Shown here one piece after another: positions 12,969-26,280 of a DNA stretch of 64,000 bases. Source of the DNA: Bacteroidota bacterium (GTDB taxonomy: Bacteria > Bacteroidota > Rhodothermia > Rhodothermales > Bin80). The position numbers and the translations under genes were made by a program. The DNA is taken from assembly GCA_026709065.1 (NCBI GenBank), contig JAPOTS010000035.1, forward strand, positions 16,033 to 80,032, in the 5' to 3' direction. Below the pieces are notes generated by a model that was given only the letters and a program-made list of their open reading frames with translations, ran no database searches and was not told the DNA's origin. Each line of letters starts with the position of its first letter. Positions within the stretch are counted from its first letter, which is position 1.

Positions 12969-13289
12969 TAGGAACAGAAGCCTATATTAGAGCGTAATTA
13001 TATATTGATCGTTCATACATTATCAGTAGGATCGTTCCTAACTTAACTCAGATTGATTCCATAAATTGAGATAGAATTTAATTACAAACATTTTCATATC
13101 CACCACTCATCGCTTGCAAAACATTGCTTGGATACATTGCGTGATCTTCCTATGGTGAATCATTTTCTTAAAGACATTACTCTTTAAGAACTGATGAGTT
13201 TTAATGTGTTTGCTTCTTTGATTCAGACTGAATATAGACAGCGCATCAATCTCTTCAATTAACCGTACTCTTACTTAATATTGAATTCC

Positions 13290-14090
13290 ATGTATAAATA
13301 TATCGTCACATTGGTGGTTGTTCTTGGAGGATGCGCTGGGGCAGGGCGTGTCAGCCATGATTCTCCGCGTGATGCATTTGAAAAGGGTGTCAGCTATTTT
13401 GAGAGAGGGCGTTATAGCCGCGCAGCTGAGTATTTTCAGGGAGTATTTGATTATGGGCGTACGCATGAGTGGGCTGCTGATGCCCAGTTAAACCTTGCTC
13501 GTTCTCATTACAAGAATCGTGATTACATTATAGCGGCGAGCGAGTACTCCCGGTTTGCAGAGATTTATCGAACGCATGAACGCGTAGCTGATGCCGAATT
13601 TGAAAGAGCAATGACGTTTTATGAACGGTCTCCGAAGATTGAATTGGACCAAACGACTACCCGTCAAGGCGTTGAGGTATTCAACTTGTATATCCAGCGT
13701 TATTCCAACCATGATTCTGTTAATGTAGCCATGCAACGTGTTGGCGAATTGCGCCGCAAACTAGCAGATAAGCAGTTTCATGCCGCAAAGTTATATGAGC
13801 GCAGAGGATTGTATGAGGCAGCTGCACTATCGTATGAGAACGTATTTGATACGTATCCCGACACACCACTTGCGGATGATGCCTTACTCGGCGCATTAAG
13901 ATGTTATATAGAATTCAGTGAATTAAGCATTGTTGCGCGTCAGCCTGAGCGACTTCAGAAGGCAATTACTCACTACCAGAGGCTTGAAGATCTTTTTCCA
14001 GATAGCGAGTTATTGAATGAAGCGAGGGAGTTTGGTGGCGTCGCAGAGAGTAAACTAAATGCATTAATTGAAGATGACTCAACTTTGTAG
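13290..14090 (+). CDS. bamD: outer membrane protein assembly factor BamD
   Basis: Lipoprotein signal (VVVLGGCAG) followed by TPR repeats, with BamD/YfiO-like length and composition. Confidence 0.75.
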   Translation: MYKYIVTLVVVLGGCAGAGRVSHDSPRDAFEKGVSYFERGRYSRAAEYFQGVFDYGRTHEWAADAQLNLARSHYKNRDYIIAASEYSRFAEIYRTHERVADAEFERAMTFYERSPKIELDQTTTRQGVEVFNLYIQRYSNHDSVNVAMQRVGELRRKLADKQFHAAKLYERRGLYEAAALSYENVFDTYPDTPLADDALLGALRCYIEFSELSIVARQPERLQKAITHYQRLEDLFPDSELLNEAREFGGVAESKLNALIEDDSTL

Positions 14091-14098
14091 ACATTCGT

Positions 14099-14683
14099 AT
14101 GAAAGTGGGGATTTTTGGTGGCACGTTTGATCCACCACATATTGCACATTCAATTATTGCAGAACGTGTTCTTGAAGAATTTGGACTTGATCAAATAGTA
14201 TGGGTTCCAGCATTTGATCCCCCTCATAAATCGTTACATCAACTCAGTTCCTTTACCCATCGTGTGGCTATGGTTGATGCTGCGGTATCAAATCATTCTT
14301 CGTTTCAAGTATCGGAGATTGAATCAACACTTGACTGTCCGACCTATACGATTCGAATGCTTCGTGCCCTAAGAAAACAATTCAGCCATGCGAAGCGTTA
14401 CTTGATTTTAGGCGGTGATAGTTTAAATCATTTCCATACATGGATGGAACCCGAGGCCATTATGGAGCACGTTGAGCTCATTGTATATCCTAGAGCAGGG
14501 CACTTAATTGAGGAGATGGATTTACCACCTTACTTATCCGACCAAATTCATTATATTCAAGCACCAATGATGTCCTTGAGTGGGGAGCATGTGCGTACCT
14601 GTTTAATTGAAGAAAAGTCTATTCGTTATCTCGTATTAGAAAGTGTGAGAGATTATATTGTTCACCATCAAATATACCATTAA
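14099..14683 (+). CDS. nadD: nicotinate-nucleotide adenylyltransferase
   Basis: GIFGGTFDPPHIAH nucleotidyltransferase motif, 194 aa. Confidence 0.9.
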   Translation: MKVGIFGGTFDPPHIAHSIIAERVLEEFGLDQIVWVPAFDPPHKSLHQLSSFTHRVAMVDAAVSNHSSFQVSEIESTLDCPTYTIRMLRALRKQFSHAKRYLILGGDSLNHFHTWMEPEAIMEHVELIVYPRAGHLIEEMDLPPYLSDQIHYIQAPMMSLSGEHVRTCLIEEKSIRYLVLESVRDYIVHHQIYH

Positions 14684-14697
14684 TCGCCTTTTTTTGT

Positions 14698-15348
14698 ATG
14701 GGAATACTAGACTTTCTTATTGGTAACCAGCCACCTCTGATTCAAGACTCGTTGGATGATATTAAGGTCATGTTAGATACGGGGTACAACTTGTTTTCTG
14801 CTTCAAGTGCTCGATTGTTAGAAAATGAAATTTTAGATGAAGATTTGTCTGCCCAAGAAGCCGTGATTTGCAAGCGAGAGCATTCAATTCGGCGGGCTGT
14901 ATTGGAGCATTTAAACATTGATCCTAAGCGAGAATTGGTTCTCTGTATGAAGTTGTTAACCGTTGCTCAAGATGCTGAGCGCATTGGAAGAGTTGGGCGA
15001 ACGATTGAATGGGCTGCTACCATTGCTACGAGTCCTAGAATTGACTCCACTGTTGACGATATCCGAACCTTACGTAATCAGACTCTTATACAGTTTGAAT
15101 GTGCGCGGGATTGTTTTCTGGAAGGAGACATTCAGAAAGCTCATGATGTTCAAGATAAACAAGTACAAGTTGATGAAGGGTTGCGTCAAGTCCTGAGTCA
15201 CTTGGTTGCCTCTGAATTAGATTCAAGTAAAGTTGTACCGTATACTATTGGGGCTTTTGCTATTGGACGCATCGGAGGACATTTAGCAAATATTGCTCGT
15301 TGCGTTACTGAACCCTTACATCGTGTGCGAGAAAGAGGGGATTCGTGA
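14698..15348 (+). CDS. PhoU-domain-like all-helical protein
   Basis: Two helical repeats with conserved D/E..R patches (AQDAERIGR, LANIARC) resembling PhoU. No pst genes are nearby. Confidence 0.45.
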   Translation: MGILDFLIGNQPPLIQDSLDDIKVMLDTGYNLFSASSARLLENEILDEDLSAQEAVICKREHSIRRAVLEHLNIDPKRELVLCMKLLTVAQDAERIGRVGRTIEWAATIATSPRIDSTVDDIRTLRNQTLIQFECARDCFLEGDIQKAHDVQDKQVQVDEGLRQVLSHLVASELDSSKVVPYTIGAFAIGRIGGHLANIARCVTEPLHRVRERGDS

Positions 15349-15405
15349 ATTCGGTAAGACTCAAAAATTCATCCTAACCTTTAAGTTCATTCAATCATAT
15401 ATATC

Positions 15406-15969
15406 ATGGCATTAACTTATTCAAAAATGGGCGAGCTTGGGACAAAAGCCCCATCATTTACCCTACCAGTATCTAACCCTACAAGTGGAAATCAACCCCT
15501 AATGAGCCTTGATGAAGTTTCAAATGGGGCTGCCCTGGTAGTTGTATTTATGTGTAATCACTGCCCCTATGTGATCCATGTAGAGGATGCACTCATCAAG
15601 GCTGCTCAGATTTGCAAGGAAAAAAAGGTTCAATTCATTGCAATCAGCAGTAATGATGCAACACAATATCCAGAGGATTCATTTGAAGCAATGAGGCAAC
15701 GCGCGGTGGATAAGAATTATCCATTTCCCTATCTGTATGATGAATCTCAATCTGTTGCAAAAGCCTATGGTGCTGAATGCACCCCAGATTTTTTCTTATA
15801 TGACTCTAACCTTTCCCTCGCATATAGGGGGCGCTTTGATGAAACTCGCCCCGGTGGAAATCCAGCGACAGGTGAAGAGTTTCTACAAGCTTTAGATGAG
15901 CTATTGAGTTTTGGTTTTGTCACGATGCCTCAGCGCCCATCATTGGGTTGCAATATTAAATGGAAGTAG
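15406..15969 (+). CDS. thioredoxin-fold (AhpC/TSA-like) redox protein
   Basis: VVVFMCNHCPYV active-site region and a redoxin-like length. Confidence 0.7.
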   Translation: MALTYSKMGELGTKAPSFTLPVSNPTSGNQPLMSLDEVSNGAALVVVFMCNHCPYVIHVEDALIKAAQICKEKKVQFIAISSNDATQYPEDSFEAMRQRAVDKNYPFPYLYDESQSVAKAYGAECTPDFFLYDSNLSLAYRGRFDETRPGGNPATGEEFLQALDELLSFGFVTMPQRPSLGCNIKWK

Positions 15970-15975
15970 GGTAGC

Positions 15976-17397
15976 ATGGATTGGATTGTATTACTGCCTC
16001 CATTGATTGCCATTGGATTAGCTCTTCTTACGCGCCAAGTATTTCTATCATTGGTCGCTGGACTTTTAGTTGGAACCACCATCTTGGCAGGTGGAAATCC
16101 TATTGGTGGGTTGATCCAGATGGCCGATGTAATTGTGGGAGTGTTTGGAGATCAATCAAATACGAAAATTTTATTATTTAGCCTCTTGGTTGGTGGATTG
16201 ATTGCACTGGTTCAGGTATCAGGGGGTGTCAGTGCATTTGTACAATATGTTCAGAAATCTGGATTAGCGAAGACGCGAAGAGGTGTAGAGTGTATGGCTT
16301 GGTTTACGGGCTTACTCATATTTGTTGAATCCAGCATCACTTCACTGATCGTGGGGACTCTTAGCAGGCCATTTTTTGATCGATTGCAACTCCCAAGGGA
16401 GAAACTGGCTTATTATTGTGATGCCACAAGTGCACCTGTATGTATGCAGATTCCATTAAATGGCTGGGGTGCGTTTGTTTTGGGCTTATTACTCGTTCAA
16501 GGATATGAAAGTAACGCAGTTTCTACTCTCATTGGTGCTCTTGCCTTTAACTTCTTTTGCATTATAGCCATCTTGTTTGCTCTCTTTCTTGCTTTAACAG
16601 GGTGGGGTTTTGGTTCTATGCGTAAAGCAGAAATCAGAGCCTTAAGCTCCGGTGATTTAATTCGACCGGGGGCTAAACCGATGATTGCTGACGAAGTCGC
16701 TGGTTTAGAGCCGGTAAAGCCATCATTAGGGCGAATTTATGATTTTTTGATTCCTGTAGCTGTCATGATTATGATGATTTTTGTCAGCCTGTATGTGACT
16801 GGTGATGGTAATCTCATGGAGGGCAGTGGATCTACTGCAGTATTGTGGGCTGTTAGTGTTGCGGTATTGGTTGGATTGATTATCTATATGATTCCGCGTG
16901 AGGGACAGATGCTATTATCTCCCGCGAAAAGTACTGACTATGTGATCAAGGGAGCATCTGGGTTAGTTGGGGTTGTGGCCTTATTAGTCCTGGCTTTTGC
17001 ACTTGGACAAGTCTCTCGGGATTTGGAGATGGGTCCATATATTGTTTCTGTATTGGGAGAAGATATTTGGACTTGGTGGCTCCCTGCTATGGTTTTCCTT
17101 ATTGGATGTTTTGTATCATTTACGTTAGGATCATCTTGGACATGCTTCGCAATATTAATTCCACTTGCGTTACCGCTGGCGGAGGGCTTGGAGATTCCTA
17201 CTTCTCTGATGCTTGGTTCAGTTCTATCTGGTGGGGTTTTTGGAGATCATGCGTCCCCATTATCCGATACCTCAATCATTTCGTCTATGGCATCGGCATG
17301 CGACCATGTTGATCATGTGAATACCCAGCTACCTTATTCTTTACTGATTGCAGCCATGGCATTTGTTACCTTTTTGGTGGCTGGAATTCTAACCTGA
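15976..17397 (+). CDS. nhaC: Na+/H+ antiporter, NhaC family
   Basis: Polytopic membrane protein of 473 aa with an NhaC-like layout (C-terminal GVFGDHASPLSDTSI motif). Confidence 0.8.
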   Translation: MDWIVLLPPLIAIGLALLTRQVFLSLVAGLLVGTTILAGGNPIGGLIQMADVIVGVFGDQSNTKILLFSLLVGGLIALVQVSGGVSAFVQYVQKSGLAKTRRGVECMAWFTGLLIFVESSITSLIVGTLSRPFFDRLQLPREKLAYYCDATSAPVCMQIPLNGWGAFVLGLLLVQGYESNAVSTLIGALAFNFFCIIAILFALFLALTGWGFGSMRKAEIRALSSGDLIRPGAKPMIADEVAGLEPVKPSLGRIYDFLIPVAVMIMMIFVSLYVTGDGNLMEGSGSTAVLWAVSVAVLVGLIIYMIPREGQMLLSPAKSTDYVIKGASGLVGVVALLVLAFALGQVSRDLEMGPYIVSVLGEDIWTWWLPAMVFLIGCFVSFTLGSSWTCFAILIPLALPLAEGLEIPTSLMLGSVLSGGVFGDHASPLSDTSIISSMASACDHVDHVNTQLPYSLLIAAMAFVTFLVAGILT

Positions 17398-18978: not shown

Positions 18979-19596
18979 CTCATTAGTTCAACGATCAAAA
19001 TCATCCTTGAAAATATCAGTTCTGGATATTGGCTAACTTTTAAGGGGTAAGTTATAGATCATTGGTAATGGTCGAATTTGTAAGCTAATGGATGATTCAG
19101 GAAGCCATTCAATTCAAAAACAGATACTCTGCCATATATAACTCGTCTTAGAAAGGATAAATCAATCATGATCTCTTCAACGAATAGTAGTATGATTTTA
19201 TGGATAGATCTTTGTACGCTATGTGTTCCCTGTTCTCTTAGAGAGTTCATTCAGGGCTCCCATATTTCTGACGATTACAATGTTTTTCTGCTGATCAATG
19301 AATGAACCGCTTTCTGAGACTACAATACTATCGACTATCTACGTAAATGCCCTCAATATAAAACCGTATAGCACCTGATGATGGATCATCTTCTATAAAC
19401 CGCACGAACTTAGAAAATGAGGATTAGTTTTATCCTCATTGAGATTGTGATTAGGTTTTGAAGTACACGATGTAATGTATACATTTCTAAGTCTGTGAGA
19501 TTGAGGCAGTCCCTATCTGGCTTATTGATCCTCGTTCAGTGATTAGGGTCATACACTCGTTTTCCTTCTGGTAATTTCAATACTGTTGCTAAGAAT

Positions 19597-20472
19597 ATGA
19601 ACATCAAGGAGTTAATGATCAAAGTAATAGATCGTTTACAATATAGCAATCTACCACATTCTCGCATCACCGCGAAATGGATTTTCTGTCATGTCCTTGA
19701 TTGCAGTGCAACATATCTCATTGCCCATGAAGACTTATTATTGAACACGAAACAGATCTCCACAATTCTGGAAATGACAGAACGCTGTGCTAATCATGAA
19801 CCTGTACAGTATGTCATTGGATACACAGAATTCTGTGGGTTGATGATTGATCTTTCCCCAAATGTAATGATTCCTAGACCCGAGACAGAACACCTTGTAG
19901 AGCTATCACTCAAAGCTTTAAAATCGATTGACACACTTAGCGTGCTTGACATAGGTACGGGAAGTGGATGCATCGCATTAGCAATGAAACATTTCTTGCC
20001 AAAAGCAAATGTCACGGCATGTGATATTAGTGTAGAAGCACTTAGTGTTGCTAAGGGTAACTCAGAAAATCTCGGACTTCAACTGAACTTTGTCCATGCG
20101 GATATATTTTCATCAAATTTTTTAACCAATGTTGAAACAGCCTACGATCTTGTGATTAGCAATCCGCCATATATTCCTGATCATGAGTCTTCAGGCTTAC
20201 CTAAAATGGTTCGAGATTTTGAGCCCCCTCAAGCGCTTTTTTGTGGTGATGATCCTATGAGCTACTATCAAGCAATTAATGACCATCTTGATGATGAATT
20301 ACTTAAGGAGGGCGGGATTATAGCATTAGAAACTCATTCTGACTATGCCGTGACTGTAAGTGATTTATTTGAAAAACGCCAAGAATATCATGTTGAAATG
20401 AAGTATGACCTGAATGAAATGCCTCGCTTTGTAATCGCAACCAGACGGCCGAGAAATTCATCGCAAGCATAG
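19597..20472 (+). CDS. prmC: peptide chain release factor N5-glutamine methyltransferase
   Basis: SAM motif LDIGTGSGCIA and catalytic ISNPPYI. Confidence 0.9.
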   Translation: MNIKELMIKVIDRLQYSNLPHSRITAKWIFCHVLDCSATYLIAHEDLLLNTKQISTILEMTERCANHEPVQYVIGYTEFCGLMIDLSPNVMIPRPETEHLVELSLKALKSIDTLSVLDIGTGSGCIALAMKHFLPKANVTACDISVEALSVAKGNSENLGLQLNFVHADIFSSNFLTNVETAYDLVISNPPYIPDHESSGLPKMVRDFEPPQALFCGDDPMSYYQAINDHLDDELLKEGGIIALETHSDYAVTVSDLFEKRQEYHVEMKYDLNEMPRFVIATRRPRNSSQA

Positions 20473-20482
20473 TAACTGTTCC

Positions 20483-21340
20483 ATGAAATTAGCACTTATT
20501 CAATGCTCAGCATCAGAAGATTTACATAATAATCTTGCTCGGGGATTAAAATCATTAGAAACTGCAGCGGAATCTGGGGCGGATATAGTCGTTTATCCAG
20601 AGCTGGCGTTTACACCATTTTATCCTCAACATAAGCGGGGTCATTATCCAGAATGTCAGAATACTCATTTGCCTCCATTATCATTAGCTGAAGAAATTCC
20701 AGGCCATACAACCGATGTGTTTTGTGAGGCGGCTCAGCGATTGGGCGTGGTTGTTGTTCTTAATTTGTATGCCCGAGTAGGCGATCAAGGCTTTGATGCA
20801 TCCCCCGTCATTGATGCGGATGGAACATTATTAGGAGTCACAAAGATGATGCATGTTACACAATATGAGGGTTTTTATGAGCAGGATTATTATACCGTTG
20901 CAGGTCAACAAGCATCTGTCTATCAAACTGAGGCTGGTAGAATAGGTGTTGCAATCTGCTACGATCGACATTATTTTGAATATCTCAGGGCATTAGCATT
21001 GCAAAAAGCCGATCTAGTTGTTGTGCCTCAGGCTGGTGCGCTCAATGAATGGCCGGAAGGTTTGTTTGAGGCCGAATTGAGAGTTAGTGCTTTCCAAAAC
21101 GGCTACTATATGGCCCTTGCCAATCGGGTGGGGAAAGAAGATGTATTAACCTTTGGAGGTGGTTCTTTCATTGTTGATCCAATGGGAAATGTCATTGCCC
21201 GCGCATCGGAAACAAAGCCATCCATGTTACTAGCTAACCTAGATTTAAAGCAATGTGATGAATCCTACGCGCGAAAATTATTTCTCAGAGATCGTCGACC
21301 TGAGATGTATGAAGGTGGGGCAGTGCGCTTTCATAATTGA
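20483..21340 (+). CDS. carbon-nitrogen hydrolase (nitrilase superfamily)
   Basis: Glu-Lys-Cys triad context (YPELAF..., GVAICYD). Confidence 0.8.
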   Translation: MKLALIQCSASEDLHNNLARGLKSLETAAESGADIVVYPELAFTPFYPQHKRGHYPECQNTHLPPLSLAEEIPGHTTDVFCEAAQRLGVVVVLNLYARVGDQGFDASPVIDADGTLLGVTKMMHVTQYEGFYEQDYYTVAGQQASVYQTEAGRIGVAICYDRHYFEYLRALALQKADLVVVPQAGALNEWPEGLFEAELRVSAFQNGYYMALANRVGKEDVLTFGGGSFIVDPMGNVIARASETKPSMLLANLDLKQCDESYARKLFLRDRRPEMYEGGAVRFHN

Positions 21341-21852
21341 GCAAATTCTTCGTAGGACGTTTCTTTCCAAGCTCCAGTTGCAACATACTGTAGCACAACG
21401 CTAAATTCGTCTAATGCCCAGTAGCCTGGGCATTTTGCAATATAGCTTCCATCGTTAGTTAAAAATACAGATGTAGGAGTCCCTTCAGCCCCAAGGCTAT
21501 ACCCAAGCTCCTGAGATGTTAATATATAGTCTTGAAACGTATGAGTGGTTTCTGAATCATCAATATTTAGTCGACCGTAAGCAAAGTGATTTTGAACATA
21601 TTCTACCAATGCTGCATCTGTATAGACCTCCTCCTGCATTTTACGACACCACCCACACCACGGTGCATAAATATCAATCAAAATAGGTTTACCCGTCCTT
21701 GATGCAGTAGCGATCGCTTCATCAAAGGTTGGCCATGTCATCGGGGCAGGTAATGGAGGGATTTCATTGATGGCTATCGGTTTGGGATTATCATTAGATC
21801 CACATCCAATGATCAGGGGTAATAATAGTAGAAATCGAGAAGTGTTTAGCAT
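21331..21852 (-). CDS. thioredoxin-fold lipoprotein
   Basis: Lipobox LIIGCGS and a WCGWC redox motif. It overlaps the upstream glycosyltransferase by 7 nt. Confidence 0.75.
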   Translation of the reverse strand: MLNTSRFLLLLPLIIGCGSNDNPKPIAINEIPPLPAPMTWPTFDEAIATASRTGKPILIDIYAPWCGWCRKMQEEVYTDAALVEYVQNHFAYGRLNIDDSETTHTFQDYILTSQELGYSLGAEGTPTSVFLTNDGSYIAKCPGYWALDEFSVVLQYVATGAWKETSYEEFAQL

Positions 21853-22997
21853 TCTAATAGGCTACGGTAGGGGGTAAGAAAGTGTTTGGATTCTATGGTA
21901 TAGTTAAAATTTTCTTTAAATTTAGATGTATTACTAGCCCATTTGTATAGGTATTCAGGGTTTTGAATTGCAGTATTGAGGGCAGACCCCAAAGCCTTTA
22001 CATCTCCACTTGGAACGACACAGCCTACATCAAATCGCTCAATGATCTGACGGATTTCTGGAAGATCACTTGCAATGACAGGAATCCCAGCCGAGAGATA
22101 TTCAAACAATTTATTTGGAAGGGCATATTTATGATTAAGACAACAGTCTTCTAGGAATGTGATTCCAATATCTGCGGTAGCTGTAACATTGAGTAATTCA
22201 TCTGGTGAAACTGGATCAAGGAATTTTACTTTGGAACTTAGATTCAAATCCTTCACGAGTCGCTCAGTTTCGCCCCTCAGCGGACCTTTCCCCAAGAACA
22301 CCAAGAGAGCATTTTCAGTGTAACGCATCGCATTTACCATCATTGAACCACCTCTATGTTTTTGGATACTTCCTTGATGAAGGATGATCGTTATATTATC
22401 AGTGACATTCAATGTTTTTCTAAGCGATGGTGAGGTACTTGCTTTTTGGGGCTCAGGTACGTTTAACATCAAATATACAGAATCTAAGCCGTAGCTGTCT
22501 GAGAGATGTTTGGATATGCTTTCACTGACTGTAAATACGCAATCAGCTTTGCGGATGTATTTACGTTCAACCAATGACCATACACCACGTACCCATGGAC
22601 GTTTGATCGTTGCAGGTACATGTGTATAGAGCTCACGAGAATCAAATACTAACTTGCCTCTATGCCGAGTGGCAGTTTGTGACATGGCAGCAAGGACGTA
22701 TAAATCACTTGCATGGTAGACCCTAGAAACGACATTGCGAAGTGCACGCTTGGATTGTTGATAAACATTAAAAAAGAATTGTGGTCCATGCCCATTTGGT
22801 TTAGGGAGATATTTCATAGTCACATTTGGAATATTGATCGTTGCATCTAAAGACTGATCGGCTATTGCTAAGACCAATATATTGGCTCCTAAATCTGATA
22901 GCAACCTTAATTGACGGAGTGCTCTTGAATTCACCATTGGATCACCTGTAAGTGCAAACGCAACATCAAATATATCCATGGAATGATGTGTATTCAT
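21846..22997 (-). CDS. glycosyltransferase family 4 (GT-B fold)
   Basis: C-terminal GT1/GT4 region (E..PNKLFEYLSAGIPVIASD). ATG 22979 is an alternative start. Confidence 0.8.
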   Translation of the reverse strand: MNTHHSMDIFDVAFALTGDPMVNSRALRQLRLLSDLGANILVLAIADQSLDATINIPNVTMKYLPKPNGHGPQFFFNVYQQSKRALRNVVSRVYHASDLYVLAAMSQTATRHRGKLVFDSRELYTHVPATIKRPWVRGVWSLVERKYIRKADCVFTVSESISKHLSDSYGLDSVYLMLNVPEPQKASTSPSLRKTLNVTDNITIILHQGSIQKHRGGSMMVNAMRYTENALLVFLGKGPLRGETERLVKDLNLSSKVKFLDPVSPDELLNVTATADIGITFLEDCCLNHKYALPNKLFEYLSAGIPVIASDLPEIRQIIERFDVGCVVPSGDVKALGSALNTAIQNPEYLYKWASNTSKFKENFNYTIESKHFLTPYRSLLEC

Positions 22998-23627
22998 CAG
23001 ATTATGTCTTCTTCAAATAACATGGCTATAGATTATCTGGAAGTCTGAACCCCAAATGTTGGGTCCGCACATGTGATTCAGTGAATGTGTTCTAATTGAA
23101 GAAATTTAAGATCCTTTTCCTTTAGGTTGTAATCAAATTTAATGATTTTCTTAAATCATTAAAGCATTATTTACTGATTGTCCTTGTAATTTCGTGTACT
23201 ATTTTGGAATCAGAGTCTTATTCGCCAGCGGTGCGAGTCAAAGTGATTCTGTGATTCAACCGTTTTTCGATTGGTTTTTGTAAGGAACGTCTTAGTGTAG
23301 GATGGGACGAACATCATGTAGTTGTTTCTGAGGCAATGCGTCCTCACAGGAAGATCAAATTATCCAGACTGCATGGGCATTTGATCGTACTTCTTGAAGC
23401 GGGTGACTCAAGCCAGATAACGTTCTCATGTGGAAGCAATTTATTAGAAACACAAGATTTGAGTGGAACTTTGCACTAACAGGAGGAGACTGGAGTTTTA
23501 CAGACAGCTTATTGGAGTGCTTCTATATCAACAGCATCTCAGTCTACATCCCCACTGAAAGTTGAGTCGCTGACCTTGTCCTCCATGTCCAACGGAGAGT
23601 CATCCAACTCACATACACATCTGGAAG

Positions 23628-24581
23628 CTAAGGTTTCCATGCCAAAAAGAAAAATATCGGAGTAAAAACACCTCTTTGACTTCCTTCAACCACAGCATCT
23701 GCACCTTTATTCAGGAATGTGCTAACAGCTCGGGTTCCTTTTGGGGCTAGTCGAAATGATTCCCCAATCAGTATAGCAAAATTCGTCAGAGACCATCCAA
23801 TCGGTGTACGCGGAGTGATTATCAGACTCAAGTCACGGCCTTGTAGGGCGCGATACCATGGTGTATTTGGGTCTGCTTCTGGGACTAAGTTGCGAGCTTC
23901 AAGGATTTCAAATCCTGCATCATGCAATGCTTTATGCACCTCGTGTGTTGAGTTGATATCTGAGAGCCCGTTTCCTAGCATGATGTGTTGCTTGATCTGT
24001 TGGTGATCTTTATTATCTGGATTAAAATCTTCGGTGGACACCATTCATAACCCGCAGAATATGCCTCTGAACTAAGCAAACGGAAGACTTCTCGGAATGC
24101 TGCAGTTTTATTTGGTGCGTGCGGCATGAATTCAATTGCAAATGCAGCGTCATAGTTATTATCTTCTTCGGGAATTTACATATTGCTTGTGTGGATGAAA
24201 CGACAGAGTTGACTGATATCCTTGGTATGCATTTTAGCACATTCAATCTGATAGGCATTGATATTGATCCCGACAAAGTTGGCTCCTGTCCATTTGGTAA
24301 AGTTTCTCATTGGACCTCCGACACCACAACCAATATCCAATACCTGCATTCCTGATTTAAGCGATAATTTATCGGATAGGAAGCGTTGATGCCTGAGCGG
24401 GGATTCTTTGAAAGATTCATTTTGGAGGCGTGGTGCGAAGTGAAAAGATTGCCCCCCAGCCGAACTCATAGAAATTTGTCGTGAGGTCATAATAGTCATT
24501 GACAAGATTCTGGTAATTATCCTGTCTATCTTCAAGTCGGCCGTCTTGGAGTTCTTCGTAACGATTGACCGTAGATTTCAT
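23628..24581 (-). pseudogene. disrupted sterol 24-C-methyltransferase (ERG6/SMT family) gene
   Basis: Three track ORFs and one unlisted frame join into NDYYDLTTNFYEFGWG|QSFHFAPR...VLDIGCGVGGP...NM*IPEEDNNYDAAFAIE..PHAP...GYEW|STEDFNPDNKDHQQIK...PWY...RLAPKGT...FTPIFFFLAWKP. This is collinear with yeast Erg6 and plant SMT1. There are two frameshifts and one TAA. Confidence 0.8.
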
Positions 24582-25360
24582 CTCTTCTGGAACTAGATGT
24601 GCTAATCAGTCAGTTTGTGGTATTTTAATACATGTATGAGACATGAACAATTGATGATGAATGAATAGAGTAATAATGCACCCATGAAGGCTTCATTGCT
24701 AAACCAACTAGGGAATAGTAGTGGGAGAAAGTTACGCAACAATATTATGAATGTTGCACAAAACCATAAACTTAGGGAATTACGAGCAAACTGTAAGGTG
24801 CCTCCTGAGACGGCGCTCAATCCTATGACTTTGTTCCTTGATCACTTCCCCATTGCAGTCTTTAAACAGTCCATGCATCGCTTGGCGATCCGTCAAATCT
24901 TTGTTTTGCTCATTCATCTTCTATATGGCTTGTTCCAGATCAGTACTATCGCACAATCATTGTTCATGGACCAATCTGTCTCGCTACGATATCAGCAATG
25001 TCTATATTGAGTTCTTGGATGTTAACTTTTTCAAGGGTATCCTATTTTTCTACATCCGACGAAACCGCAAGATTGTAATCATTATCAATGATCATCTCTT
25101 TGTCTACCAGCATGGTATGTAGTCTATACTTCGGCGATCGGTAAACGCGTCTATGCTCTCTGTCTGATAGGTATAGTTGGGCTACGTACCTAATTGATGC
25201 ATTGTTGTTACCGATAGATGACTCATCGTTCAACAATTTGATTATTATTTATTCTGTTTTGCTTGCATTTATGATCATTTCACTGGGCACTCTGGAGAAC
25301 ACAGACCAGATCCAAAACGTATAATTTTTCCGTGATGATCTTTGCATTAAGAGGTCTATT

Positions 25361-25519
25361 ATGCCTAATTCTATGCCACTTCGGAATGGATTTCTGTCGG
25401 GGTTAATCAGCATTAATGAGGGATCATTAAGATGGATCTTTCCTAAATTTACCGGAAAACCTGCATTCCATAAAGCAAGAGTGGTACAAGATATTGTTTT
25501 TTACAAAATAAGTTTGTAA
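25361..25519 (+). CDS. 52-codon ORF coupled to plsC (hypothetical)
   Basis: ATG 25361 with no internal stop. Its TAA overlaps the plsC ATG as TAATG at 25517-25521. It is below the track size cutoff and has no recognisable motif. Confidence 0.25.
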   Translation: MPNSMPLRNGFLSGLISINEGSLRWIFPKFTGKPAFHKARVVQDIVFYKISL

Positions 25520-26280
25520 TGCGCGTATTGATACGCTTAATTGTCGTGTTGATTATAACCATTATTGGATGTATATATACGAGAATCGGAGCCTGGTTTC
25601 AACCGAAAGATCAGAGATTGTCATACAAAATGATGCGTCAAGGAGTCGCCGCTCGAAATTTTTGCCGTGTATTTAACATACATGTCCATGCATCCACCGA
25701 TTCAAAAGTGTCTCCATGTACACTTCGTGTAAGTAATCATCTAACCGTTCTTGATCCTATGATCATAGCATCACAATTAGATGTCTGTTTCGCAGGTAAA
25801 GCTGAAATTGCCCGCTGGCCTATCATTGGATGGATCGCACAATCTTATGCAATGCTTTTAGTCAATCGACGGACAAAGTCACATGCCAAAACATTTGCTT
25901 CCCAAGTTAGAGAACGTCTTATGGAGAATGGATCCGTAATGGTATTTCCAGAAGGCACAGTAGGTAATGGCACAACCCTACTCCCTTTCAAAACAGGAGC
26001 CTTTGAAAGTTTAAAAGGATGGGATCAAGGTAAGCTTCAACCGATCTTTATAAATGTAACGGGCATTAATGACCGCACGGTTGACGGCAAAGATGGGCGG
26101 ATATTTATATCCATGGCTTCGGATGTAAAACGCCATTCATTTATTCAGCAAATCGTTCATATTGCAGGTTTACGTAGATTAGATATTGAATTAAATATTG
26201 GCCCCTATATCAATATATCTGGAATGAATCGTAGAGAAAGTTCACTTGTAGCACGCGAAGCAATCAACAGACTTTCTTAA
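25519..26280 (+). CDS. plsC: 1-acyl-sn-glycerol-3-phosphate (lysophospholipid) acyltransferase
   Basis: HX4D motif (SNHLTVLDP), FPEGT block and an N-terminal TM anchor. Confidence 0.85.
   Translation: MRVLIRLIVVLIITIIGCIYTRIGAWFQPKDQRLSYKMMRQGVAARNFCRVFNIHVHASTDSKVSPCTLRVSNHLTVLDPMIIASQLDVCFAGKAEIARWPIIGWIAQSYAMLLVNRRTKSHAKTFASQVRERLMENGSVMVFPEGTVGNGTTLLPFKTGAFESLKGWDQGKLQPIFINVTGINDRTVDGKDGRIFISMASDVKRHSFIQQIVHIAGLRRLDIELNIGPYINISGMNRRESSLVAREAINRLS

Follow-up and report, generated by a model that had tools for sequence, protein, structure and literature searches.

Introduction

Functional sterol C-24 methyltransferases (SMTs) have been demonstrated from uncultured bacteria, including sponge symbionts, and many of them are encoded in clusters with oxidosqualene cyclase (OSC) and sdmA/sdmB genes (Brown et al. 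2023, Nat Commun, PMC10070321). A list of 25 residues that are conserved across functional SMTs has been compiled (Brown & Welander 2025 preprint, 10.64898/2025.12.19.695621). Among Ircinia symbionts, ERG24-CYP51-LSS clusters have been reported from 11 bacterial classes, Rhodothermia among them, together with purifying selection, horizontal transfer and an enrichment of SMT1/ERG6 annotations (Kelly et al. 2022, Microbiome, PMC9531527). The term "pseudogene" is absent from the main text of PMC10070321 and PMC9531527. Here we describe a bacterial-type SMT pseudogene at positions 23628–24644, on the minus strand, of a 64-kb stretch of a Bacteroidota metagenome-assembled genome (MAG; GCA_026709065.1, contig JAPOTS010000035.1). 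We refer to this whole stretch as the window and give all coordinates on its forward strand; other loci carry L labels and proteins P labels.

The relic has the same class I S-adenosylmethionine (SAM) domain, the same Sterol_MT_C domain and the same Region I and Region II motifs as the published bacterial SMTs (PMC10070321, 10.64898/2025.12.19.695621), and its close relatives are likewise clustered with OSC, CYP51, ERG24 and sdmA/sdmB-like genes. The published enzymes are intact and active, whereas the relic stands outside any cluster, beside nothing but a scrap of an OSC gene. The core order reported for the Ircinia clusters (PMC9531527), ERG24-CYP51-lanosterol synthase, is also found at loci L003, L006, L024 and L029; the published core genes are reported to be under purifying selection, whereas here SMT is decayed in two related genomes in which the core is intact. 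Compared with eukaryotic ERG6 (yeast) and SMT1 (plants), the relic has the same Pfam families and recognised motifs, but its nearest 120 homologues are all ~340 aa long and the contigs examined are bacterial. The locus is an ordinary pseudogene of an already described bacterial family, and what is new is its decayed state and its reconstructed history.

Results

The minus strand of 23400–24800 was translated in all frames. Fragments between 23628 and 24581 that a preliminary description of the window had joined into a single SMT were reproduced as three pieces, and the locus is almost certainly a genuine SMT-family pseudogene. It extends from an ancestral ATG at 24644–24642 to a TAG stop at 23630–23628 and would specify ~338 aa when repaired. 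Piece 1 (MKST...YEFGWG) reaches 24453 and reads MKSTVNRYEE...YYDLTTNFYEFGWG. Piece 2, one frame over after a run of six G residues (G6), reads QSFHFAPR...MQVLDIGCGVGGPM...CRFIHTSNM up to a TAA and includes LDIGCGVGGP; beyond the TAA it continues with IPEEDNNYDAAFAIEFMPHAP...SAGYEW (in short form IPEE...AIEFMPHAP...YEW). The first frame is regained after YEWC in piece 3, which gives (L)TEDFNPDN...NTPWYRALQGR...GVFTPIFFFLAWKP before the stop at 23628–23630; the C-terminal end of this piece is PWY...FTPIFFFLAWKP. The gene had previously been taken to begin at 24581, where a Met lies. DNA alignment with L003, the cluster that holds the closest intact SMT (P0001), places the true start 21 codons further upstream, and the extension is present in intact homologues.

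The native allele lacks an uninterrupted reading frame. In the direction of reading, the lesions on the minus strand are an in-frame TGA at 24606–24608, within the N-terminal 21-codon extension; a +1 frameshift in the G6 run (C6 on the plus strand) at 24452–24457, where the extra G falls in the Region I codons GWG/Q and converts TGG GGx CAA to TGGGGGGCAA; an in-frame TAA at 24176–24178; and, within the Leu codon that follows YEWC, a deletion of 1 nt between 24037 and 24036 (the window reads TGGTGTC-CACC, L003 TGGTGTCTCACT). The last three had been named at these sites, with the deletion at ~24036–24046; the TGA had been missed. The preliminary description read the TAA as replacing a Lys (DFMK), but the codon is CAG in L003, and the position is Gln in intact relatives and in the consensus of 120 homologues. 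It also took two motifs to have drifted (KGDFM to HTSNM and EATCHAP to EFMPHAP). The closest intact bacterial SMTs have HTSYM and ESMPHAP, from each of which the relic is one residue off; what sets these motifs apart from KGDFM and EATCHAP belongs to the clade and not to decay.

Assignment to the SMT family was examined by profile and homology searches. For the repaired 317-aa protein, the top Pfam match was Sterol_MT_C (PF08498; E 6.9e-16, residues 259–317), at 58.5 bits against a Pfam cut-off of 21.7 bits. Methyltransf_11 (1e-13) and Methyltransf_25 (1.5e-12) were also matched, and the absence of Sterol_MT_C, which had been named as fatal to the assignment, did not occur. The native 138-aa C-terminal fragment also has a precomputed PF08498 match. 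The class I SAM-binding motif, Region II (DxGxGxxGP), is present as LDIGCGVGGP. The sterol-binding Region I is present as YEFGWG/QSFHF, split by the extra G in the window and in frame in three other strain sequences (L014, L015 and L017). An NCBIfam scan of the repaired protein gave no model at cut-off, and NCBIfam contains no SMT-specific model; a PDB sequence search returned generic methyltransferases only, with no solved SMT among the matches.

More than 2000 homologues of the repaired SMT were found in a large protein collection, and the best 120 are all ~340 aa proteins with Sterol_MT_C, at 60–79% identity and 99–100% coverage. The closest intact relative is P0001 (L003:10001-11017; also at L008; OZ244061.1, "MAG: Rhodothermales bacterium"), with 79% amino acid identity over 100% coverage; at the nucleotide level the relic and the P0001 gene are 83.1% identical, with 2 gap openings in 1016 nt. 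Named homologues of the relic include Nitrospira and Rhodospirillaceae, and a scan of genome contigs with the repaired SMT gave 3 loci, on bacterial chromosomes of 2.5–3.7 Mb whose titles name Rhodothermales, Nitrospirales and Arenicellales; the window's own genome was not among them. The clusters of P0001 and P0002 consist of SMT, a fused squalene epoxidase-oxidosqualene cyclase (SE-OSC), CYP51, ERG24, a Rieske protein and a 3-beta-hydroxysteroid dehydrogenase (3-beta-HSD). On the bacterial contigs examined, SMT lies in operon-like clusters with Rieske SdmA-like and 3-beta-HSD SdmB-like demethylase genes. Association with sterol-ring genes was seen in the adjacent OSC relic, in the full clusters around the closest homologues and in an intact core cluster at locus L024, all described below or above. 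The label "eukaryote-type" given to the gene earlier does not fit these relatives. As judged from nearest homologues and cluster context, rather than from direct comparison with eukaryotic enzymes, the relic appears to belong to the known bacterial SMT clade, and C-24 methylation by an SMT family member is predicted for the ancestral gene.

The reality of the lesions was examined across strains and assemblies. Over 21 kb the window matches ENA contig ERZ27276907 k141_37508 at 100% identity, and over 13 kb it does so with Logan contig SRR10996923_819. Contigs from ENA, NCBI, JGI 3300009910 and Logan, 19 in number, carry the 138-aa C-terminal fragment, and 6 more carry a close variant. Five strain sequences, 0.7–0.9% apart, were aligned: the window, L011, L014, L015 (GCA_026709525.1) and L017 (JGI), whose samples differ, as do the pipelines behind them (MEGAHIT at ENA, Logan, NCBI MAG and JGI). 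No variation is seen among the five at the TAA, the 1-nt deletion or the TGA. The G run is G6 in the window and L011 and G5, in frame, in L014, L015 and L017, with N-terminal open reading frame (ORF) calls of 134 aa in G5 strains and 107 aa in G6 strains. G5 versus G6 tracks more than 10 linked single-nucleotide polymorphisms (SNPs) and is therefore a haplotype rather than noise. The extra G is the youngest lesion and is polymorphic. The 1-nt deletion had been interpreted as a shift compensating for the extra G; it is common to all strains, whereas the extra G is found only in some, and the deletion is therefore older and not compensating.

Recurrence of the lesions in independent ENA, NCBI, JGI and Logan assemblies bears out the earlier call of a genuine pseudogene. 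Reassignment of TAA in the genetic code was ruled out by stop-codon usage, as TAA ends 11 of 32 long ORFs in the window (TGA 11, TAG 10). With reproducible lesions and an excess of change at conserved sites, the relic is a unitary pseudogene. In NCBI, its 138-aa C-terminal fragment (23628–24044, minus strand) is annotated in MCY4170448.1 and MCY4234088.1 as a hypothetical protein, not as part of a pseudogene (entry text "hypothetical protein OXE59_10180"), and gene callers also turn the N-terminal fragment, of 107 aa or 134 aa, into a protein of its own that has methyltransferase matches. A strain-level rearrangement adjoins the locus: L014 (ENA ERZ27276890) has at 1-481 a DDE_Tnp_1 transposase gene where the window (~26592) has chorismate synthase, just past an acyltransferase gene.

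Change at conserved positions was compared with that in the 120 intact homologues. At columns at least 97% conserved, the relic departs at 14 of 112, against a median of 1 and a maximum of 9 in intact proteins; at invariant columns it departs at 5 of 56, and the maximum among intact proteins is 3. Two of the 25 residues listed for functional SMTs are replaced (G217 in Region IV by Glu and G352 by Ser) and the other placeable residues are present, the mapping being by motif offsets, with the numbering transferred by inference. P0001 also lacks G217, having Lys there (Region IV RSK, against RPG in nearly all homologues), so the change at G217 predates the split between P0001 and the relic. Every SMT tested in the 2025 preprint keeps this residue; the P0001 ORF is intact in three assemblies.

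Rates of change point to a late loss of function. On the branch leading to the window, nonsynonymous divergence (dN) is 0.078 and synonymous divergence (dS) 0.405, an omega of ~0.19, close to the 0.18 of the branch leading to intact L003; these are rough values from a three-taxon Nei-Gojobori comparison in which one distance is near saturation (dS 1.1). The similarity of the two branches indicates that SMT was under purifying selection through most of its divergence and therefore probably died recently. Strain SNPs are about twice as dense in the relic as in the 19 kb that flank it (11 observed against 5.2 expected; P 0.017).

Adjacent to the SMT relic, at 23191–23665 on the plus strand, lies the decayed 3′ end of an SE-OSC gene, identified by tblastn and by DNA alignment with L003. 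When the L003 SE-OSC was searched against the window, matches were obtained on the plus strand at 23191–23653 (E 8e-11 and 2.6e-5). The relic corresponds to residues ~979–1148 of a 1151-aa SE-OSC, the last ~170 codons, and is spread over two frames with internal stops and frameshifts. SMT and OSC converge, with an overlap of ~38 nt at their 3′ ends, just as they do in intact clusters, and the DNA alignment with L003 is unbroken from ~24680 to ~23199. Searches of the window by tblastn with every other L003 cluster protein gave no CYP51, ERG24, Rieske or HSD relic. Fused SE-OSC proteins of ~1130–1160 aa are the norm in the best 120 homologues of the L003 SE-OSC, which include names from Nitrospira, Acidimicrobiia, Rhodospirillales and Bacteroidetes MAGs.

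The two relics have decayed to different degrees. The OSC piece is 67.9% identical to L003 at the nucleotide level, with 11 gap openings in 468 nt; between the intact clusters L003 and L006, these two segments diverge to about the same extent (78.9% and 81.5% identity, 0 and 1 gap openings). Compared with SMT, the OSC piece has an excess of indels with a binomial P of 1.2e-4, or 0.002 when three small N-terminal indels are assigned to SMT. As the OSC piece is far more indel-ridden than SMT, we conclude that it was dead long before SMT.

An intact core sterol cluster was found at L024:5282-13486 (ERZ27276907 k141_74403), with genes for 3-beta-HSD, Rieske, ERG24, CYP51 and SE-OSC whose lengths match those of L003. 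The search for an OSC and squalene epoxidase that the preliminary description had called for has thus given two results, the scrap beside SMT and this intact gene. SMT is absent from the L024 cluster (tblastn with SMT was negative), and a 0.6-kb spacer follows OSC; at this same site a sister genome, L029, has an SMT relic and ~2 kb more. The L024 SE-OSC is P0331, identical to MCY4170002.1 ("[Bacteroidetes bacterium]"), an accession 445–450 away from those of the window proteins MCY4170447-452. The two samples that contain the window contig also contain the L024 contig (as ERZ27276907 k141_74403 and SRR10996923_4752), and GC content is 42.1% at the L024 locus and 41.7% in the window. A second strain group has a matching SE-OSC copy, MCY4232188.1. 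On the basis of accession proximity, co-occurrence, GC content and synteny with the sister genome, the L024 core cluster very probably belongs to the MAG of the window.

The relics resemble a different type of cluster from this native one. The MAG's own OSC shares 75% identity with the OSC of the sister L029 (whose valyl-tRNA synthetase (ValRS) is 81% identical) and 62% with the L003 OSC. For the SMT relic, identity is 79% with the L003 SMT and 54–62% with what remains of SMT in L029. In bits, the scores of the OSC relic are 59+40 with the L003 OSC, 33+31 with the MAG's own OSC and 31+25 with P0404 of the sister. Both relics are nearer to the L003/L006 type and are therefore taken to derive from such a cluster and not from the native one; duplication of the genome's own OSC as a source of the OSC relic was ruled out on the same comparison. 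Horizontal transfer within Rhodothermales would be the simplest reading of their origin. Organisms of the L003 type and of the window clade do co-occur, sample ERZ25070844 being the source of L003, L018 and L023. The intact sterol cluster is flanked by TnpB-like (Cas12f1-like_TNB) genes in two other assemblies of the L003 species (L004:7246-8490 and 19430-20779; L005:2620-3864 and 14807-16156); these genes are missing from L003 and are insertion polymorphisms.

The relics lie between two intact genes, a glycosyltransferase gene on the left (21846–22997, minus strand) and an acyltransferase gene on the right (25519–26280, plus strand). To place the window among its relatives we used its ValRS, MCY4170452.1 ("MAG: Bacteroidetes bacterium"), whose best homologues are 77–84% identical and in some cases named Rhodothermaceae bacterium; ValRS homologues named Rhodothermales are ~64–67% identical. 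Four sister genomes share the local order PrmC, CN-hydrolase, thioredoxin and glycosyltransferase, followed by acyltransferase ... chorismate synthase, ValRS and carbamoyltransferase. The gap between glycosyltransferase and acyltransferase measures 637 bp in L018 (4.15 Mb; ValRS 83% identical), 76 bp in L019 (3.83 Mb; 80%) and 331 bp in L020-22 (JGI samples; 84%); in L023 (82%) the glycosyltransferase side is rearranged. No SMT or OSC was found at this locus in L018, L019 or L020-22, or upstream of the acyltransferase in L023.

Nucleotide homology between the window and its sisters ceases at both gene starts, ending at 22998–23000 on the left and resuming at ~25493–25508 on the right. With four sisters lacking the insert and homology ending at the gene starts, the 2.5-kb spacer (22998–25518) is specific to the lineage, and it would most simply be an insertion. 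Its outer parts are a spacer that separates the OSC relic from the start of the glycosyltransferase gene (22998–23190), with no homology to sister genomes or sterol clusters, and one upstream of the SMT relic (24645–25518), in which DNA homology to L003 ends near 24680. For 22998–23190 and 24681–25518, tblastx, blastn, Pfam and Rfam gave no origin. A 28-nt D1 repeat at the spacer, with 75% identity, is probably due to chance.

Sterol genes of related genomes were also compared. The sister L029/L030 (a 4.19-Mb chromosome; also JGI 3300009846) has an intact native core cluster that is syntenic with L024. At L029:13500-14580 (minus strand), with the same layout in L030, an SMT pseudogene converges on the intact SE-OSC and carries at least 3 frameshifts plus stops, lesions that are unrelated to those in the window. 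From these comparisons SMT appears to have been lost at least two times independently, with the core cluster kept. In a further sister genome, at L028:8300-20700, an insertion made up of a lone fused SE-OSC and several small ORFs (N6_N4 DNA methylases among them) separates AhpC/Na-H antiporter from PhoU-like/CTP-transferase/YfiO genes; the locus is syntenic with window positions 13281–17397, where these neighbours are adjacent. The different locations of sterol genes in related genomes show that they are mobile in this clade.

Discussion

The data are probably best explained by an account in which SMT was acquired horizontally, kept under selection and recently inactivated in a lineage-specific insert, beside a hitch-hiking scrap of SE-OSC. 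Direct observation covers the family of the gene, its lesions and the order in which they arose, the OSC relic, the lack of the insert in four sisters and the intact cluster on a contig assigned to the MAG. Three further elements we infer: the horizontal origin, a functional period in this lineage and the source of substrate. For the horizontal arrival of a cluster fragment, taken by itself, our confidence is modest but on the favourable side. As a first step, a piece of an L003/L006-type cluster comprising the whole SMT and the SE-OSC 3′ end would have entered the space between the glycosyltransferase and acyltransferase genes, which are divergent. The truncated OSC piece would have been dead on arrival and have decayed heavily, while SMT would have been held by purifying selection for most of its later history, presumably methylating sterols made by the genome's own core cluster on another contig. 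Inactivation would have come fairly recently, through a change of CAA/CAG to TAA, the 1-nt deletion and the N-terminal TGA, which are common to the strains compared; some strains would then have added a homopolymer slip from G5 to G6.

The preliminary description held that the relic implies past acquisition or use of sterol methylation followed by loss. Acquisition and subsequent loss agree with the present data, but loss does not extend to sterol synthesis itself: an intact core cluster is very probably present in the same MAG, so that the lineage very probably keeps core sterol synthesis and the trait used and then lost is side-chain methylation only. Its suggestion that intact orthologs be sought in sister genomes was answered in part. 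Intact P0001 was found in a Rhodothermales MAG, but the four sisters have no SMT at the locus and that of L029 is broken.

We think it unlikely that the relics are an in situ remnant, left when a full L003-type cluster, inherited or acquired whole, was deleted down to SMT and the OSC 3′ end. Such a deletion would account for the exact convergent, overlapping SMT/OSC junction, and the cut at OSC residue ~979, past which lie 190 nt of DNA that could not be assigned, resembles a deletion scar, although the truncation itself fits either scenario equally well. Sterol genes occupy different loci in relatives, so mobility of whole clusters is plausible. Against this, the four sister genomes have no trace of a cluster at the locus, and a second full cluster would have been redundant in a genome that already has a complete native one elsewhere.

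It is highly improbable that the lesions are sequencing or assembly artefacts and that the gene is intact in the cell. The G6 lesion does lie in a homopolymer, a classic site of error, and the G5/G6 call varies among assemblies, but this variation is linked to the SNPs described above. The TAA, the TGA and the 1-nt deletion, which is not in a homopolymer, are invariant in strain sequences of differing samples and pipelines, the fragment ORFs recur on 19+6 contigs, and the excess of replacements at conserved residues is independent of indel error.

Equally hard to credit is a gene that still functions through programmed frameshifting, read-through or split subunits, even with 79% identity to an intact enzyme and a low branch omega. 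Such expression would depend on one or two frameshifts and on reading through two stops, a TAA and a TGA, codons that serve as ordinary stops here. A search for recoding signals was negative, and the lesions vary between strains. Two residues reported as conserved in all functional SMTs are replaced, and the fragments separate the Rossmann fold from the Sterol_MT_C domain.

The least credible alternative, a pseudogene of some CMAS-like, UbiE-like or other generic class I methyltransferase, could draw on the matches of the N-terminal half to CMAS, Methyltransf_11/25 and UbiE profiles, on the lack of an NCBIfam model at cut-off and on closest solved structures that are generic methyltransferases, but is contradicted by Sterol_MT_C as the top Pfam match above cut-off, by Region I (YEFGWGQSFHF), by closest homologues in sterol clusters and by the adjacent OSC relic.

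Several points weigh against our account of horizontal gain, selection and recent loss. The insert carries no insertion sequence, integrase, tRNA, direct-repeat or other mobile-element signature, including in a repeat search, and ~1 kb of it has no recognisable origin. The C-terminal tail of OSC may be less constrained than SMT, which would inflate its apparent decay; its stops and indels argue against this as a full explanation. The omega values that point to selection are rough, as noted, and the lack of G217 in P0001 would leave SMT function in that sub-lineage unproven. Assignment of L024 to the window genome stops at very probable, and a more distant intact SMT may be present elsewhere in the genome.

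On the same evidence we put forward, tentatively and at somewhat less than even confidence, that side-chain methylation has been lost repeatedly in a single Rhodothermales clade, probably sponge-associated, that retains the core sterol pathway. As part of this proposal, the window genome, with an SMT-less native cluster, would have gained a foreign SMT horizontally, used it and lost it again; a sponge habitat is likely for the organism. Today the relic can yield no enzyme, and sterols, if made, would be expected to lack C-24 alkylation unless another SMT is present.

The existence of bacterial SMTs makes it harder to read side-chain-alkylated steranes as biomarkers of eukaryotes or sponges alone. 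The present locus adds the reverse caution, that a bacterial SMT match may be a dead gene: fragment ORFs bearing Sterol_MT_C, such as the one described here, would be counted in surveys of gene presence. If repeated loss is general, SMT and Sterol_MT_C matches in metagenomes would overstate the bacterial capacity for 24-alkyl sterols, which is the quantity at stake in the debate over 24-isopropylcholestane as a "sponge biomarker". The clade would also offer a natural experiment, in which one genome very probably keeps its core cluster after discarding SMT twice and a sister has discarded it independently. Such losses suggest that these bacteria can do without C-24 alkylation, or that it is costly to them under some conditions.

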